Origin: Escherichia phage vB_EcoS_SCS92 | Length of the DNA stretch: 44,240 bases | Sequence record: ON548432.1 | Reading direction: 5' to 3' (one strand) | In this document: positions 1,446 through 42,809 of the stretch, piece after piece | How positions within the stretch are numbered: position 1 is the stretch's first letter | Layout of the letters: every line of letters starts with the position of its first letter | Translations under genes and position numbers: made by a program | The notes under the pieces: model-generated | What the model was told of the DNA's origin: nothing | Database searches by the model: none | The model's input: only the letters and a program-made list of their open reading frames with translations

Positions 1446-2495
1446 TTAAGCACCGACACCAGTTACCAGGAAGGCAATCGGTACGTGCTTGCGGTCAACC
1501 ACACGGTTCCAGTTGGAGGAGTTCGCCAGGTCCTGCCAGGAAGCAGAGCGCGGGGTAGTCTCGGTGCCGTTGCCAGTGATTACTGCACTGGTGAAGCTGT
1601 AACCAAACGGATGTAGCAACCAGGTCTTACGGGTCCACAGGGTTTCAACGCCGCCGCCGTTGCCGCGGGACGCTTCGCGCTCGTATTCCAGCGGGTTGGA
1701 CGGAGAACCTTCACCGTAACCGATAGCGCCGTTGCCGAAGATGATGGAGATGAACTTACGGGTCGGGCCAGTGCCGACTACGGTCATGCTGTCGTCAACA
1801 ATCACGCGGTAGCCCTGGTAGGTGGCGAACATGGTGTTGTTGTCCGCGTCACGGATGAAGTCGATAAGCTGCTGCTTACGTGCCTGCGCATAAACGAAGC
1901 TGTGCATCGCGATAGCACCTAACACTTCACCGCCGTTACCAATCAGAGCGTCACCCATAGTCTGTGTAGCATCGATGAACGCACCGGGGTCGAAGCCCAG
2001 AGTAGCGGACACGTCAATTACCATGTCGTTCCGCTCGTGGTAGGCATCGGTAGCGGCTACGTTGTCGTTGTACAGGCCAAGCGCGGTAGCAATCAGACGG
2101 CGTTGTGCCTGACGCTGCCAGAAGTTATCCAGACGTGACGCTACGGATTGCAGCGGGTTCTGGCTGGTCAGTTCAACGGTCAAATCCGCCTGACCGAAAC
2201 CTTCGTTCAGGTACGCAACGCGCGCCATCATCTCGCCGGTCTGCACGTTACGCGGGGTGGCGATGTCCTGGTATACGTCGTTCGAGTAGTTCGGCTCGAT
2301 AGAGGTATCAATCGCTTTCCAGAAAGGAATATTAGCGACGTTGGACGGGCCGCGGGCAATCTCGGCGGCGTATGGGGTCGGGGTGAGAATACCAGACTGG
2401 AAGAACGCGGTTTTTTCTACCGGGTCCTCGGTCATATAAGACGCCAGGACCGGGATGTTGCCAGTTACGATATCGCCGATAGTGGTAATTGCCAT
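1446..2495 (-). CDS. major capsid protein
   Basis: 349 aa. Directly downstream of the scaffold gene and followed by an attenuator hairpin. Size and position are typical of an HK97-fold capsid protein; the call is by position, not by a recognised motif. Confidence 0.7.
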   Translation of the reverse strand: MAITTIGDIVTGNIPVLASYMTEDPVEKTAFFQSGILTPTPYAAEIARGPSNVANIPFWKAIDTSIEPNYSNDVYQDIATPRNVQTGEMMARVAYLNEGFGQADLTVELTSQNPLQSVASRLDNFWQRQAQRRLIATALGLYNDNVAATDAYHERNDMVIDVSATLGFDPGAFIDATQTMGDALIGNGGEVLGAIAMHSFVYAQARKQQLIDFIRDADNNTMFATYQGYRVIVDDSMTVVGTGPTRKFISIIFGNGAIGYGEGSPSNPLEYEREASRGNGGGVETLWTRKTWLLHPFGYSFTSAVITGNGTETTPRSASWQDLANSSNWNRVVDRKHVPIAFLVTGVGA

Positions 2496-14074: not shown

Positions 14075-14278
14075 TTATTTCTCCTGTTTTCCAAGTCGCT
14101 TAGGTGAGCAGATAGCGCGTACCTCTGAATCGTTGGGCTTGTCACCCTGAAACAGAAAGTGCGCGTTCTCGGCGGCGCGTGCCGCTGACTGGCACGCCTC
14201 CATCGAGTAAAACGTTTCTGATGCCGCCAGGTGCATCTGGCCTGCGGACAGTACCCAGATAAATAAGATGCTGGTCAT
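14075..14278 (-). CDS. small protein with N-terminal signal peptide
   Basis: 67 aa. N-terminus MTSILFIWVLSAGQMHLAAS is hydrophobic with an AxA-like cleavage site; two Cys in the mature part. Confidence 0.4.
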   Translation of the reverse strand: MTSILFIWVLSAGQMHLAASETFYSMEACQSAARAAENAHFLFQGDKPNDSEVRAICSPKRLGKQEK

Positions 14279-14748
14279 TTGATTTTCCCGTGGTTGTCGT
14301 GAAACCCATATTTGTTCTCAGCGTCGGCCCTCGCTGCTCTTGCGGCAGAAAGGTCGTCGAAATATCCTAAATGTACATTTTTACCGTTAACCTTTATGGT
14401 CCCTTTCCATTTACCCGCACGCTGGAACCAATACACTCCAGTAACACCTGACCGGTTGTTGGCGGCTAATTTTGTGTTTCTATGGTTTTCGGATGCTGTT
14501 ACTTTCCTAAGATTGCACAAACGATTGTCACTACGGTCGTGATTTATGTGGTCTATTTGCTCCCCTGGGTGAAGTAAATCGTCGGGGTTAAACATGTCCC
14601 ATATTATTCGATGTGCGCGGTACTGCCTCTTTTCGACCTTCAACACAACATAGCCATCCCTATTCTTACACGTTACTTTTGCTGAGGTCTTCTTCCATGA
14701 AAGAATGCCGGTAGTATGGTCATAATCGAATAGTGTGTGCCATTTCAT
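14275..14748 (-). CDS. HNH homing endonuclease with AP2-type DNA-binding domain
   Basis: HNH motif IDHINHDRSDNRLCNLRKVTASENHRN and an AP2-like C-terminus (SGVTGVYWFQRAGKWKGTIKVNGKNVHLGYFDD...KYGFHDNHG). Confidence 0.8.
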   Translation of the reverse strand: MKWHTLFDYDHTTGILSWKKTSAKVTCKNRDGYVVLKVEKRQYRAHRIIWDMFNPDDLLHPGEQIDHINHDRSDNRLCNLRKVTASENHRNTKLAANNRSGVTGVYWFQRAGKWKGTIKVNGKNVHLGYFDDLSAARAARADAENKYGFHDNHGKIK

Positions 14749-38390: not shown

Positions 38391-38797
38391 GAGAGTTTCT
38401 CACGGCTATCGGTGTGATGCTTAACTACGGCCTCTGCCAACCCACTGTACTGGTCGAACAGGTTAGCAAGCGCCTCTTTGCTGAATGGTTCGTCGAATGA
38501 CCAACCGGTGACGATTTCCACGGCAAGCTGCTTGTTCAGGTCCATCACCCGCCAGCCCTTCTCATCATTATAGCGCGCCCAGTTATTCAGCGCCTCGCAC
38601 TCTTTATCTAATGGCGCAAGTTCTTCCGTAAGGCGTCGAATTGCCGTTGTGTAGGCGCGGCCCGCACGAACACCAGCGTCACAATCGGGGCCAATGACCT
38701 GTAGCCATTCACCAGAGTCTTTACCACTCGGCAGAAGGATAGGCATTTTAGTGCCAGCAGCATGGCGGTCCGCAAAATAAAAATCAGAAAGTTTCAT
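38381..38797 (-). CDS. tail assembly chaperone (lambda G-like)
   Basis: 138 aa, immediately upstream of the tape measure gene, with a slippery site at its 3' end. Confidence 0.5.
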   Translation of the reverse strand: MKLSDFYFADRHAAGTKMPILLPSGKDSGEWLQVIGPDCDAGVRAGRAYTTAIRRLTEELAPLDKECEALNNWARYNDEKGWRVMDLNKQLAVEIVTGWSFDEPFSKEALANLFDQYSGLAEAVVKHHTDSREKLSEK

Positions 38798-38904
38798 TCT
38801 TTAATCCTTTGGTTAAGAGGTTACTGGTTAAGGTTGACGCGCCAGACGGGAACCACCCGCTTTTCGTGTGCGACACTAGGCGCAAAATTATTCTAGCACA
38901 CTAC

Positions 38905-38933
38905 TTGCACACCCCAATATAATAGGGTACTAT
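38905..38933 (+). promoter_or_regulatory. sigma70-like promoter (TTGCAC-N17-TACTAT class) with AATAG-N4-CTATT palindrome, driving the opposite-strand island
   Basis: CTTGCACaccccaatataatagggTACTAT, 28 bp upstream of the ATG at 38962. Confidence 0.55.
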
Positions 38934-38961
38934 TCACCAGTAACTTACTGAGGGTATAATT

Positions 38962-39288
38962 ATGCGTAAATTAGTATTAGCTCTGGGGTTTATGTCTTTT
39001 GCTACTTTTGGAGCCCCGTGCGAACAGGTATTTAGTGAATCCGTTCTTATGACTTCTGGTGTGCTTGATAAAGCCGACCTTACTATTGTAAAGGCATTTA
39101 AAGACTCTACAGTTCGCGAGTGTGAGGCTGCCGTAGTGGTTGGTAAATCGGGCCTGCCTCCGCAAGCCGTAACATACTCGGTAATACGTTCTGTAGAGAA
39201 AAACGGAGACGCGTTTTACAGCCTACTGACAGCCACCCGCCTGCAAATGGTGATGACCGGGTGGGCGATAGGCGCGGAAAGTAAATAG
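38962..39288 (+). CDS. small secreted/periplasmic protein with signal peptide (candidate superinfection-exclusion factor)
   Basis: 108 aa. N-terminus MRKLVLALGFMSFATFGAP is a signal peptide. Opposite strand to the tail genes, with its own early-type promoter. Confidence 0.5.
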   Translation: MRKLVLALGFMSFATFGAPCEQVFSESVLMTSGVLDKADLTIVKAFKDSTVRECEAAVVVGKSGLPPQAVTYSVIRSVEKNGDAFYSLLTATRLQMVMTGWAIGAESK

Positions 39289-39353
39289 TCGCCTTTATTT
39301 AAAGGAATGCACTGTGGTTAAATAGGACAAATCCTAAACACGAGGAAGTAAGC

Positions 39354-40484
39354 ATGGCCCGGAAGAAAATAACCGACGAACAGTTGCAGGAAGAATTGAA
39401 CGCCGGGATGAAGAATATCGATATCGCCCGTAAATACGGAATCTCAGACCGCGTTATTCGTATCCGTAAAGCGAAGCTGGCTAAGAAAGGTGTAGGCCAC
39501 GGGCGTGACGTTAGCCACCTTGTCCCAGACGGCTACAAGATTAAAGGGACGTCGTCCCTGGTGGACGAGTTCGGCAACACTAAGTTGCAATGGGTTAAGA
39601 CCGACGCTGATGCCGAACGTCAGGTTGAATTGATGAAAGCCGTAATAGAGGGCATGAAGTCAGAGATTACGCCCGTTGCGCCTGTTAAACCGGCACGAGC
39701 CAAACGTGACGATAAACTACTCAATCTTTACACGGTATCTGATTTCCATCTCGGTATGCTGGCATGGGCCGATGAGAGCGGCGACGACTGGGACATGAAG
39801 ATTGCAGAAGACCTGTTCTCTCGGTGGTTCGACGCGGCGTTTCAGAAAGCACCGGATGCAGGAACAGGAGTTATTAACCTGCTTGGCGACCTTGCACACT
39901 TCGATAGTCTGGACGCCGTTACCCCGGCAAGTGGTCATGTTCTCGATGCGGACACGCGCTACCAGAAACTGGTTCGCTACATGATTCGTATGGTCCGCCG
40001 TGTTGTCGATATGGCCCTTGTTAAGCATAAAAATGTTCGCTTGCTTATCGTACAAGGGAACCACGACGAAAGCGGAATGATTTGGTTAGCTGAGATGTTC
40101 AGTACGCTGTACGACAATGAGCCTCGTGTGTTCGTCGATACGTCGCCGGATGTTTACAAGATGGTGCAACACGGCAAAACGACGCTGTTCTTTACACACG
40201 GGCATAAATGCCGGTTTGAGGTGGTCGAACCCATTATGATAGCTAAGTTCAGAAAAGCATTTGGCGAAAGCGAGTACAGTTACGCACATGTCGGTCATCT
40301 CCACCATCAAAAGATTGTAGAAAGTAGGAATATGGTAGTGGAACAACATCGCACTCTCGCGGCGAAAGATGCATATGCTTCCCGCGGTGGGTGGATGTCT
40401 AAGAGGTCCGCTAATGTCATAACCTATAGTTCAGAGTTCGGGGAAGTAGGTAGGCTTTCGATCTCACCGGAGATGCTAAGATGA
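39354..40484 (+). CDS. HTH-fused metallophosphoesterase (calcineurin-like)
   Basis: 376 aa. N-terminal HTH-like region (NIDIARKYGISDRVIRIRKAKL) and C-terminal metallophosphoesterase motifs (DFHLG, LLGDLAHFD, VQGNHDE, FTHGH, HVGHLHH). Confidence 0.65.
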   Translation: MARKKITDEQLQEELNAGMKNIDIARKYGISDRVIRIRKAKLAKKGVGHGRDVSHLVPDGYKIKGTSSLVDEFGNTKLQWVKTDADAERQVELMKAVIEGMKSEITPVAPVKPARAKRDDKLLNLYTVSDFHLGMLAWADESGDDWDMKIAEDLFSRWFDAAFQKAPDAGTGVINLLGDLAHFDSLDAVTPASGHVLDADTRYQKLVRYMIRMVRRVVDMALVKHKNVRLLIVQGNHDESGMIWLAEMFSTLYDNEPRVFVDTSPDVYKMVQHGKTTLFFTHGHKCRFEVVEPIMIAKFRKAFGESEYSYAHVGHLHHQKIVESRNMVVEQHRTLAAKDAYASRGGWMSKRSANVITYSSEFGEVGRLSISPEMLR

Positions 40485-40951
40485 AGTACCTTGATGTTTC
40501 AAAACAATTTAAATACTGCCCTGATACTGGGCAGGTTACCAGGATATCTACTGGTGCTGAGGTTGGTACGGTTGGTGTAAGAGGCTATCTGTGCTGCGGT
40601 ATGGGTGGCAAAACAGTGTATGTCCACCGCATAGCATGGTGTCTTTATAATAAATGTGACTTAGACAGGAAAACTCAAATAGACCACATAAACCATAACA
40701 GGCTAGACAATAGAATAGAAAATCTACGCGCCACCGACAATACAGGGAACAGTAAAAATAAAACTATGAGAAAGATAAATAAATCCGGGGCTACAGGTGT
40801 AAGTTTCCACAAAGCCGCGGGTAAGTGGCGCGCGTTTATAAAAGTTAACTACAAACAAGTGCATTTAGGGCTTTACGACGATTTTGATGTAGCGGTTGCC
40901 GCGCGTAAAGCCGCCGAGAGTAAATACGGTTTCCATGAAAACCATGAGTAG
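40481..40951 (+). CDS. HNH homing endonuclease with AP2-type DNA-binding domain (second copy)
   Basis: IDHINHNRLDNRIENLR HNH motif and AP2-like C-terminus (SGATGVSFHKAAGKWRAFIKVNYKQVHLGLYDD...KYGFHENHE). Paralogous to the gene at 14275-14748. Confidence 0.8.
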   Translation: MKYLDVSKQFKYCPDTGQVTRISTGAEVGTVGVRGYLCCGMGGKTVYVHRIAWCLYNKCDLDRKTQIDHINHNRLDNRIENLRATDNTGNSKNKTMRKINKSGATGVSFHKAAGKWRAFIKVNYKQVHLGLYDDFDVAVAARKAAESKYGFHENHE

Positions 40952-40964
40952 GGGAGATTGATTT

Positions 40965-41195
40965 ATGACTTCAAAATACAACCGCACAATGACAAATACT
41001 CACGGCAGCACTATGACAGTAGACGTTTATGATGTGCTCCGCGCCTTCGATATACGCGACCCGGCGCTACAGCACGCATTGAAGAAGCTATTGTGCATGG
41101 GCTTGCGCGGACACAAGGACACCGGAACCGACTTAGCGGAAGCAATTGAAAGTCTGGAGAAGTTACGGGAATACCGAAGCAATATTGATGAGTAA
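40965..41195 (+). CDS. hypothetical conserved phage protein
   Basis: 76 aa. VDVYDVLRAFDIRDPALQHALKKLLCMGLRGHKD resembles a recurrent small phage protein family seen from memory. Confidence 0.45.
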   Translation: MTSKYNRTMTNTHGSTMTVDVYDVLRAFDIRDPALQHALKKLLCMGLRGHKDTGTDLAEAIESLEKLREYRSNIDE

Positions 41196-41223
41196 GAAAA
41201 AGGCCCCGAAAGGGGCCTTAGTT
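41196..41223. terminator. bidirectional rho-independent terminator
   Basis: GGCCCC-gaaa-GGGGCC stem with an A-run upstream and TTAGTTTTA downstream, between the convergent stops at 41195 and 41224. Confidence 0.55.
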
Positions 41224-42396
41224 TTATGCGTAGGTGATACGTTGAATTACGATAGACGACTGGTACTGGTTGCCGGTGGCCTGCCCCTCAATGGACTGAG
41301 TGATTGACTCGGGTCCGCCAATCTCTGGTGTTACTGCTGTAAGCTCTGCGCGTTTCAAACTGAAAGACATAGCCCCGTTTACCCCCGCCAGAATAGAGTT
41401 AATCTCTACCTGCTGTTCGTTGATAAACTTCTGAATCATCGCCATGTCGTACAGCTTGCCGGAGATGGAGAAAGTGTTAGCCGCGCGGCTACGCTCAACA
41501 AACGCTACGTTAGTGTTACCAAGTTCGAACTGCGCGGACGCGCTGTTATCGTTGGTGATAGTCAGACTGTCGCATCGCAACGGCGTAGAACCATCGAACA
41601 CGGAAACGTCAACCGAAGAAAACGGCTCATCACCAAAAGTAACAGATGAGAAGTTGGAACCGGTCGGCGGCGTGGTGAGAATCTCCTGACTGCGACCGAT
41701 GAATGGGAAGCTGCCAGTTACCATCGCGTTAACAGCCTGTTCGATGGTAAAACCAGAAACTTCCACGCCTTTGGTTAACGTGTACGCGTCAGTACCGCCG
41801 CACTGGCCTTTGTACCAGGTAAGGATAGAGAACGTCTTACACGTATTACCGGTTTCCAGCGTGTCGCCAGTTTTAGCCTTACTAGTTTTTGTCTCGGTGG
41901 TCAGGGTGTGTTGGATGCCTGCACCAGTAACAACCGTAGCCGTTACTGCAGTAACAATAAATGGTTTTGCATTATCGCCAGTTAAATCGGTAAACGCAAT
42001 CAGGTCGCCTACCCCAACTCCGTCAGTGATAAAGCTGCCGGTGGCACGTGTGAACGTCTTGCCAGCCGGTGCGACGGTAATCGATAGCCCTGACAGAGAT
42101 ACGCCAGCCTGCCACGTAGAGCCTAAAGCCCCGGCTAGCCAGTCATCCTGGCTTTTCGAGCTAAGCTCAATAGCATATTCACCGCTAACCTGCTTGTTAC
42201 CGGTGCGGATGGATGTAGTTTCGCGGCTGCCGTCCAGTTCGTTGGAGGTCAGCGTGTCACGGGTAATGGCAGGAACGCCGCCTGTGTTACGCAGTGGCGA
42301 CCATACCGGGTTAGCCGGTGTTACGCCCGGGGTAGTTTCCGCCACATAGAATTGCGCGGTATTCGCGCCCTTAAAAGGAGTTGTAGCCATATTCAC
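41224..42396 (-). CDS. major tail (tube) protein, putative
   Basis: 390 aa, Thr/Gly/Ser-rich, downstream of the neck genes and upstream of the chaperone and tape measure genes; called by position. Confidence 0.5.
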   Translation of the reverse strand: MNMATTPFKGANTAQFYVAETTPGVTPANPVWSPLRNTGGVPAITRDTLTSNELDGSRETTSIRTGNKQVSGEYAIELSSKSQDDWLAGALGSTWQAGVSLSGLSITVAPAGKTFTRATGSFITDGVGVGDLIAFTDLTGDNAKPFIVTAVTATVVTGAGIQHTLTTETKTSKAKTGDTLETGNTCKTFSILTWYKGQCGGTDAYTLTKGVEVSGFTIEQAVNAMVTGSFPFIGRSQEILTTPPTGSNFSSVTFGDEPFSSVDVSVFDGSTPLRCDSLTITNDNSASAQFELGNTNVAFVERSRAANTFSISGKLYDMAMIQKFINEQQVEINSILAGVNGAMSFSLKRAELTAVTPEIGGPESITQSIEGQATGNQYQSSIVIQRITYA

Positions 42397-42809
42397 AGCC
42401 TCTTGGTGAATGCAATAAAGTTAATTGACAATGGTCTTTTGGCCCATCCGTTTTCTACAATCAGCGGCCCCAGGCTAACCGATTGAACCTCGGCGCAGAT
42501 GTCGTTACGTGAAAATGACTTACCTGATTTAAACGCCGTGTTAAGTAAGTCTGCCATTTTATTGATTGGCGCGCTACCTTTCACCGATGCGTAGTTAATG
42601 TCTATCTGATAGACACCGGCGCGTTGTTCCGTGAAGAATAAGTCAGCCTGCTCGGTATCCGCCAGCAACATGTAACTTGCCAGATACGGCGTATCTGTTG
42701 ACGTCGGCGCGTCGATGTTTTCAAGCGCTACCTTGATGCCGTTGGTGGTTCCGAAGGCTACCAGCGGCACATCAAACGCTTTTGTTAAGTCCTCAAAGTA
42801 GCCCATCAT
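42393..42809 (-). CDS. tail terminator / tail completion protein (putative)
   Basis: 138 aa, immediately upstream of the major tail gene; called by position. Confidence 0.4.
   Translation of the reverse strand: MMGYFEDLTKAFDVPLVAFGTTNGIKVALENIDAPTSTDTPYLASYMLLADTEQADLFFTEQRAGVYQIDINYASVKGSAPINKMADLLNTAFKSGKSFSRNDICAEVQSVSLGPLIVENGWAKRPLSINFIAFTKRL

Follow-up and report, generated by a model that had tools for sequence, protein, structure and literature searches.

We describe a protein, HTH-MPE, encoded in a 44,240-nucleotide stretch of DNA from Escherichia phage vB_EcoS_SCS92 (ON548432.1; the window), in which a helix-turn-helix (HTH) domain is fused to a calcineurin-like metallophosphoesterase core. 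Our best, if still tentative, explanation is that HTH-MPE is a DNA-tethered phosphodiesterase, either an exo- or an endonuclease, acting in the early-to-middle phase of phage DNA metabolism. The name HTH-MPE is used here for the 376-residue product of the open reading frame (ORF) at 39354..40484 (+ strand, stop codon included). A Shine-Dalgarno-like GAGGAAG can be read from the sequence at 39342..39348 (+), 5 nucleotides 5' of the ATG. The tested 2.3 kb of the window is identical to Escherichia phage NTEC3 (OK539620.1 / NC_073318.1; genus Kagunavirus, subfamily Guernseyvirinae), and the GenBank annotation of the window's genes was taken from record OK539620.1. There, the same coding sequence (UDG73305.1) is labeled "calcineurin-like phosphoesterase superfamily domain protein". 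The predicted ORF is thus real, with its exact coordinates recovered, a ribosome-binding site upstream, and a GenBank counterpart. Public annotation already covers the gene, its domains, and its family. The profile of PHROG 704 ("DNA repair exonuclease", a name that is a sequence-based annotation) matches HTH-MPE over residues 4-375 (E 5.8e-166), and the orthologous phage T1 gp16 (ST16, YP_003929.1; 377 aa) is 45% identical to it over 377 aa (E 9e-117).

Domain architecture and catalytic site

We modeled HTH-MPE with AlphaFold2, using an alignment of 88 relatives as input, and obtained a confident model with a mean predicted local distance difference test (pLDDT) score of 92.6. Residues 1-45 (39354..39488; this and all following segments of the gene lie on the + strand) contain an HTH of the LuxR/GerE/sigma-70 region 4 type, with the fold itself spanning roughly residues 5-45 and helices at residues 8-16, 21-28, and 32-44. 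A flexible linker follows (residues about 45/46-60; 39489..39533), which is modeled at low confidence (pLDDT 50-70). Model and conservation together delineate a family-specific module at residues 61-104 (39534..39665), made up of a β-hairpin (61-85) and a long helix (87-104). The calcineurin-like metallophosphoesterase core, defined by the model, profiles, and fold matches, occupies residues 119-376 (39708..40481) and has the β-sandwich phosphoesterase fold. Its last strand and helix (residues 363-375) form the end of the protein, and there is thus no capping domain.

The N-terminal family profile matches the DNA-binding domains of LuxR/NarL/GerE proteins (RhlR, E 5e-5; NarL, 6e-4), and individual family members match Sigma70_r4_2 (1.5e-9), GerE (2.4e-8), HTH_8, and HTH_1. 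The domain thereby combines a significant profile match with an HTH fold, as in LuxR/GerE/FixJ-type proteins. The original prediction had given the HTH the N-terminal 80 residues; profiles and model support the domain itself but restrict it to residues ~5-45, the rest being linker and the start of the separate hairpin-helix module. The HTH is the least conserved part of the family, with a profile match in 128 of 150 representatives and none detectable in the other 22. The hairpin-helix module is present in 134 of the 150. We found no structural match for this module, which possibly mediates dimerization or contacts DNA.

We analyzed sequence conservation in an alignment of 88 relatives sharing 32-51% identity, and the motifs in 88-136 relatives. 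Ten positions are invariant across the 88 sequences (D130, H132, G178, D179, T190, N236, H237, H282, G314, and H317) and seven more are conserved in at least 90% of them (H182, D184, G235, D238, G283, H284, and H315). The invariant motif I, D130-F-H132 (39741..39749), provides metal ligands, and motif II, G178-D179-L-A-H182 (39885..39899; H182 conserved in 96%), holds the bridging aspartate. Motif III, G235-N236-H237-D238 (40056..40067), contributes an asparagine metal ligand and the catalytic histidine, and is followed by motif IV, H282-G283-H284 (40197..40205), and motif V, G314-H315-L-H317 (40293..40304; H315 conserved in 96%). Throughout the 88-136 relatives, the metal-ligand motif residues are invariant or at least 92% conserved. 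The complete binuclear ligand set (D130, H132, D179, N236, H282, H315, and H317) and the catalytic His237 are intact. An HTH fused to a metallophosphoesterase with intact catalytic residues had been predicted, correctly as judged by motifs, profiles, and model. The full set of five motifs was likewise found as anticipated, except that motif II is not GDxxD but the Mre11-type GDxxH (GDLAH). Further positions conserved in at least 90% of relatives are specific to the family: G74 and W80, which fall in the β-hairpin, and L197, D198, D200, R202, and R258.

Pfam profiles match HTH-MPE weakly and in all cases under their gathering cut-offs: Metallophos_2 at 25.2 bits (cut-off 27 bits), Metallophos at 19.5 bits (cut-off 21.5 bits), and GerE at 15.6 bits. 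We therefore regard the family as a divergent metallophosphoesterase branch, membership resting on motifs and fold. A search with NCBIfam profiles returned nothing above noise, and a single-sequence phmmer search against the PDB gave no significant match.

Fold relatives and proposed mode of action

We compared the HTH-MPE model with known structures. Foldseek placed Mre11 (4o43) first (E 4e-8), followed by DP1. In the fold ranking, the proofreading exonuclease DP1 of PolD scored highest (15.8), ahead of Staphylococcus aureus SbcD and Thermotoga maritima Mre11 (both 15.1), LpxH (14.0), MJ0936 (13.6), further Mre11/SbcD entries (12.6-13.6), GpdQ (12.1), and Rv0805, a class III cyclic nucleotide monophosphate phosphodiesterase (12.0); protein phosphatases reached 9.5 or less. 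The nearest folds are of the nuclease type. The depositors' record of phage fFiEco02 also reports an HHpred match to DP1 (99.5% probability). Sequence identity to the fold matches is 9-19%, and a search of the PDB with the family hidden Markov model gave T. maritima Mre11/SbcD as the best catalytic-domain matches at non-significant E values of 0.34-1.1. The nuclease lean of the core is consequently real but modest.

HTH-MPE matches Mre11/SbcD in its nuclease core with Mre11-type motifs, including GDxxH as in the aligned Mre11. It differs in having an N-terminal HTH in place of the capping and partner-binding parts of those proteins. With no capping domain and no Rad50/SbcC partner, we liken HTH-MPE to a stand-alone Mre11/DP1-type phosphodiesterase and do not file it as Mre11/SbcD. 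The small subunit DP1 of archaeal PolD, a 3'-5' proofreading exonuclease, has a similar phosphodiesterase domain (12% identity), but its oligonucleotide/oligosaccharide-binding (OB) fold has no established counterpart in HTH-MPE, where residues 61-104 form only a hairpin and a helix. Its partner DP2 is not matched either, and the phage polymerase is of family A (annotated DNA polymerase I). T1 gp16 shows the same layout of HTH, hairpin, and phosphoesterase.

We propose that HTH-MPE is an active phosphodiesterase, probably Mn2+-dependent, whose substrate would be DNA. The HTH would hold the enzyme on duplex DNA, while its Mre11/SbcD/DP1-like core may cut DNA ends or single-stranded or branched regions. 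The enzyme would need no Rad50/SbcC-type ATPase, acting either by itself or as a homo-oligomer. It could process ends and intermediates in recombination-dependent replication, or break down DNA to feed nucleotide salvage. Among the three candidate roles offered by the original prediction (a DNA-end or nucleotide phosphodiesterase, a protein phosphatase, and an enzyme degrading second messengers), an Mre11/SbcD-like DNA phosphodiesterase is best supported, by the fold ranking and by the gene neighborhood described below.

Several observations weigh against this proposal, the non-significant profile matches to Mre11/SbcD among them. The capping domain and the Rad50/SbcC-binding helices of Mre11/SbcD are absent from HTH-MPE, and a Rad50/SbcC-like ATPase is neither annotated in the genome nor recurrent among 59 related loci, as assessed from annotation and neighbor clustering and not by a dedicated profile search. 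The gene lies outside the replication module, in a moron-like island with a secreted protein and a homing endonuclease, and two nucleases, a PD-(D/E)XK exonuclease (phrog_69) and a resolvase-like one, are already encoded in the replication module. We found no functional study of the PHROG 704/T1 gp16 family in the literature. Finally, genes of nucleotide metabolism occur among the neighbors, so that a nucleotide substrate fits as well.

Gene neighborhood and alternative explanations

We clustered the neighbors of the gene in 59 IMG/VR loci, which encode relatives of 46-97% identity and were found with a 10-sequence alignment. ORFs were called with a simple longest-ORF heuristic that yields spurious antisense ORFs in high-GC contigs, and only Pfam-confirmed clusters were therefore used. 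Lambdoid contigs have the order NinB, NinG, the family gene, and Q, with Q directly downstream in 11 loci (L041, L044, L046, L048, L049, L051-L053, L057, L059, and L066), NinB upstream in 11, and NinG upstream in 6. Five dhillonvirus-like loci have a FEN-like exonuclease, endonuclease VII, the family gene, a HAD_PNKP phosphatase, and a MazZ-like deoxynucleoside triphosphate (dNTP) diphosphohydrolase. In Drexlerviridae, including T1, the gene ends the series of DNA-metabolism genes and comes before holin, endolysin, and spanin, with a Dam methylase upstream; in some of these phages, a PNKP-type HAD phosphatase and a deoxynucleoside monophosphate (dNMP) kinase lie between it and the lysis genes. 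One Casjensviridae phage and one Vibrio phage likewise have lysis genes next to the family gene. No ATPase partner was recurrent among the clustered neighbors. Across phages, the gene thus keeps company with genes of recombination, repair, and nucleotide salvage, in a position that closes the early operon and lies just ahead of Q or the lysis cassette.

The alternative that survives best, though we consider it unlikely, is a host-takeover nuclease that would degrade the host chromosome early, supplying nucleotides and shutting down the host including its defense genes. T1 is a classic host-DNA-degrading phage, and in the window the gene shares its separately transcribed island with genes of accessory type. 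In Webervirus, genes for a PNKP-type HAD phosphatase and a dNMP kinase come after the family gene. In Drexlerviridae without the SH3 gene, these kinases are the commonest genes after the exonuclease and have been read as boosting nucleotide supply (PMC13164509). A precedent is Gp48 of mycobacteriophage A10ZJ24, a metallophosphoesterase that acts as a DNase both in vitro and in vivo and has phosphodiesterase activity and a counter-defense phenotype (PMC12287305). Like HTH-MPE, Gp48/Bxb1 gp47 (Cluster A, phrog_221) is a phage calcineurin-like phosphoesterase with all five motifs, but it has about 254 residues and lacks the HTH and the hairpin module. We rejected common family membership, given an hhalign probability of 6.8% and the separate assignments to phrog_221 and phrog_704. 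Gp48 is nevertheless a functional precedent, from a different family, for a phage metallophosphoesterase acting as a DNase, and as such also speaks for our main proposal. A further point against host takeover is that temperate lambdoid phages carry the gene in the nin region, by recombination genes, an atypical spot for a host-destroying enzyme.

A nucleotide-directed phosphohydrolase appears slightly less probable again. Such an enzyme would act not on DNA but on cyclic mono-, di-, or oligonucleotide immune signals (anti-CBASS, anti-Pycsar, or anti-type III CRISPR) or on (d)NTP/(d)NDP pools. The HAD phosphatase, dNMP kinase, and MazZ-like dNTP diphosphohydrolase encoded next to the gene in some phages are consistent with it, and a bacterial defense system in which a Calcineurin-CE and HAD pair hydrolyzes dATP to dAMP shows that such pairs can act on nucleotides (bioRxiv 10.64898/2026.01.15.699771). 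Against it, the nearest folds are nucleases, and the HTH found in 128 of 150 representatives is of no obvious use to an enzyme of soluble nucleotides. HTH-MPE has no match in the defense and anti-defense library of PADLOC, and we found no literature linking the family to anti-defense; the second-messenger idea put forward earlier thus has no positive evidence behind it. We consider it improbable that the family is a counter-defense enzyme instead of a housekeeping nuclease, whether as a DNA-tethered phosphodiesterase that destroys nucleotide immune signals or remodels nucleotide pools together with the HAD phosphatase, or as a DNase that silences host defense genes in the manner of Gp48. If true, this would explain why virulent phages of the T1-like and Jersey-like groups retain the family, and why NTEC3 has it in a separately transcribed accessory island beside a candidate superinfection-exclusion gene.

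It is quite improbable that HTH-MPE heals nucleic acid ends, as a 2',3'-cyclic phosphodiesterase or 3'-phosphatase that would act on broken RNA or DNA ends together with a PNKP-type neighbor. Clostridium thermocellum Pnkp, which has a metallophosphoesterase module, is the model for this activity. A PNKP-type HAD phosphatase is encoded directly after the gene in Webervirus and in the five dhillonvirus-like contigs (HAD_PNKP, E 9.3e-16; phrog_415, E 4e-70), and the T1 genome has, at another position, a gene for a T4-like polynucleotide kinase. The PNKP-like association is, however, limited to some lineages, with none annotated in NTEC3, no ligase is found among the conserved neighbors in the 59 loci, and no Pnkp structure appears among the top fold matches.

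A protein phosphatase, functionally analogous to the Ser/Thr/Tyr phosphatase NinI of phage lambda, is very improbable. Lambda's slot directly upstream of Q holds the calcineurin-like phosphatase NinI (L091, 3225-3890), and it is this slot, downstream of NinB/NinG, that the family gene occupies in the 11 lambdoid contigs. NinI belongs to the same superfamily as HTH-MPE, but has 221 residues, PPP-type motifs, and no HTH. We rejected homology between the two despite the common slot, the hhalign probability being 0.6%; they thus represent two superfamily branches, non-homologous at the family level, in the same genomic position. HTH-MPE has GDLAHFD and GNHD where the PPP signatures would be GDxVDRG and GNHE, and its HTH argues for a DNA context.

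Least probable is a transcription regulator whose LuxR/sigma-region-4-type HTH would control late or lysis genes, the phosphoesterase serving as a sensor or an accessory domain. In its favor are the GerE/LuxR/sigma-70 region 4 type of the HTH, a weak match to phrog_836 ('late transcriptional activator', E 9e-4), and, in several phage groups, a location right in front of Q or the lysis cassette. Against it, all catalytic residues are invariant, which indicates selection for enzyme activity, the HTH is the part that varies most and goes undetected in 22 of 150 representatives, and the only upstream palindrome is single-copy in the genome, with no operator set evident.

Genomic island and distribution of the family

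The genomic position of the gene differs between phage groups: Guernseyvirinae such as NTEC3 carry it in a + strand island between the tail chaperone and tail tube genes, whereas T1 and other Drexlerviridae have it ahead of the lysis cassette. The island of the window comprises four + strand genes (38962-41195; region 38797-41224) that interrupt the long - strand late tail operon between its tail-assembly-chaperone genes and the tail tube gene. Transcription of the island therefore runs head-on against late transcription. The first gene (38962..39288, +) encodes a 108-residue protein with a signal-peptide-like N terminus (phrog_14165, function unknown). As a gene annotated 'immunity to superinfection' occupies its slot in SETP3, we consider the 108-residue protein a candidate superinfection-exclusion or envelope-modifying moron. 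The SETP3 (Jerseyvirus) island has an annotated promoter and terminator and contains that gene, the phosphoesterase, the 76-residue gene described below, and an Ant-like gene. A near-perfect palindrome, CCTTTATTTAAAGG, lies at 39292-39305, between the 108-residue and phosphoesterase genes. We rejected CCTTTATTTAAAGG as an operator for the HTH, since it occurs once in the genome and there is no sign of an operator set.

The third gene of the island (40481..40951, +) encodes an HNH homing endonuclease, and its start overlaps the stop codon of HTH-MPE (ATGA). It represents a mobile insertion: the gene is absent from close relatives, and in fFiEco02 DNA homology ends right after the phosphoesterase stop. 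HNH genes are found directly 3' of the orthologue in T1 (42028-42510), as in the window, in Vibrio phage 98E28-2 (6241-6750), and in at least seven metagenomic phage contigs. This recurrence, together with the absence from fFiEco02, suggests that the 3' end of the conserved phosphoesterase gene is a site of repeated homing. A second homing endonuclease gene is annotated at 14275-14748 (-), in a small-gene region (OK539620.1), and the phage therefore has at least two such mobile genes.

The last gene of the island (40965..41195, +) encodes 76 residues and, in Guernseyvirinae, is a conserved downstream neighbor of the phosphoesterase gene (SETP3 gp21, fFiEco02 FE2_021). Its product matches only the C-terminal ~70 residues of several PHROGs of 235-250 residues (phrog_2452, unknown function; phrog_17613, 'ATPase') and appears to represent, as a separate protein, a domain that other phages carry in fused form. 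By eye, it resembles a 176-residue protein encoded upstream of the family gene in five loci, which has no PHROG match; BLASTP gave no alignment between the two, and we rejected the notion of a conserved small-protein partner. A strong bidirectional intrinsic terminator at 41200..41219 (AAGGCCCC-GAAA-GGGGCCTT) closes the island against the convergent tail-tube gene. The sole match to the sigma-70 consensus for an island promoter (38933-38960) coincides in part with the first gene's ribosome-binding site and start, and sigma-70 consensus matches are no more numerous than in shuffled sequence. We thus rejected this match, and the sigma-70 scan did not locate the island promoter.

A further observation concerns the annotation of the head genes in OK539620.1. 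A 349-residue ORF at 1446-2495 (-) clearly encodes the major head protein (phrog_247, E 2.9e-119) but has no coding sequence in the record, which shows a 1.1-kb unannotated stretch between the genes for the 'capsid and scaffold protein' and the 'scaffold protein'.

We searched for the family in other phages. By tblastn, relatives were found in 2,063 of 50,697 phage records (about 4%), with at least 80% of the protein covered in 1,958. Their hosts include Escherichia, Klebsiella, Salmonella, Vibrio, Campylobacter, Flavobacterium, Rhodobacter, and Roseobacter. When 1.84 billion representative proteins were searched exhaustively, the matching clusters, defined at 50% identity, numbered 4,694 with E <= 0.001, far more than chance would give, and 1,164 with E <= 1e-30. 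In a pangenome of Drexlerviridae, the family is a persistent core gene, present in 508 of 522 genomes (PMC13164509). The family is a core gene of T1-like and Jersey-like coliphages and of many other phages. The original prediction had regarded the fusion as something other than a standard phage protein; its place in PHROG 704, the T1 gp16 orthologue, the 2,063 phage records, its core-gene status in Drexlerviridae, and the existing GenBank annotation all show otherwise.

As a discovery, HTH-MPE is therefore of little weight, and its value lies in being a target for characterization. Many of the T1-like and Jersey-like phages that carry the family are candidates for phage therapy. Learning what the family cuts, with or without a Rad50-like partner, would confirm or correct thousands of annotations, and the family could define a minimal stand-alone Mre11-like nuclease.

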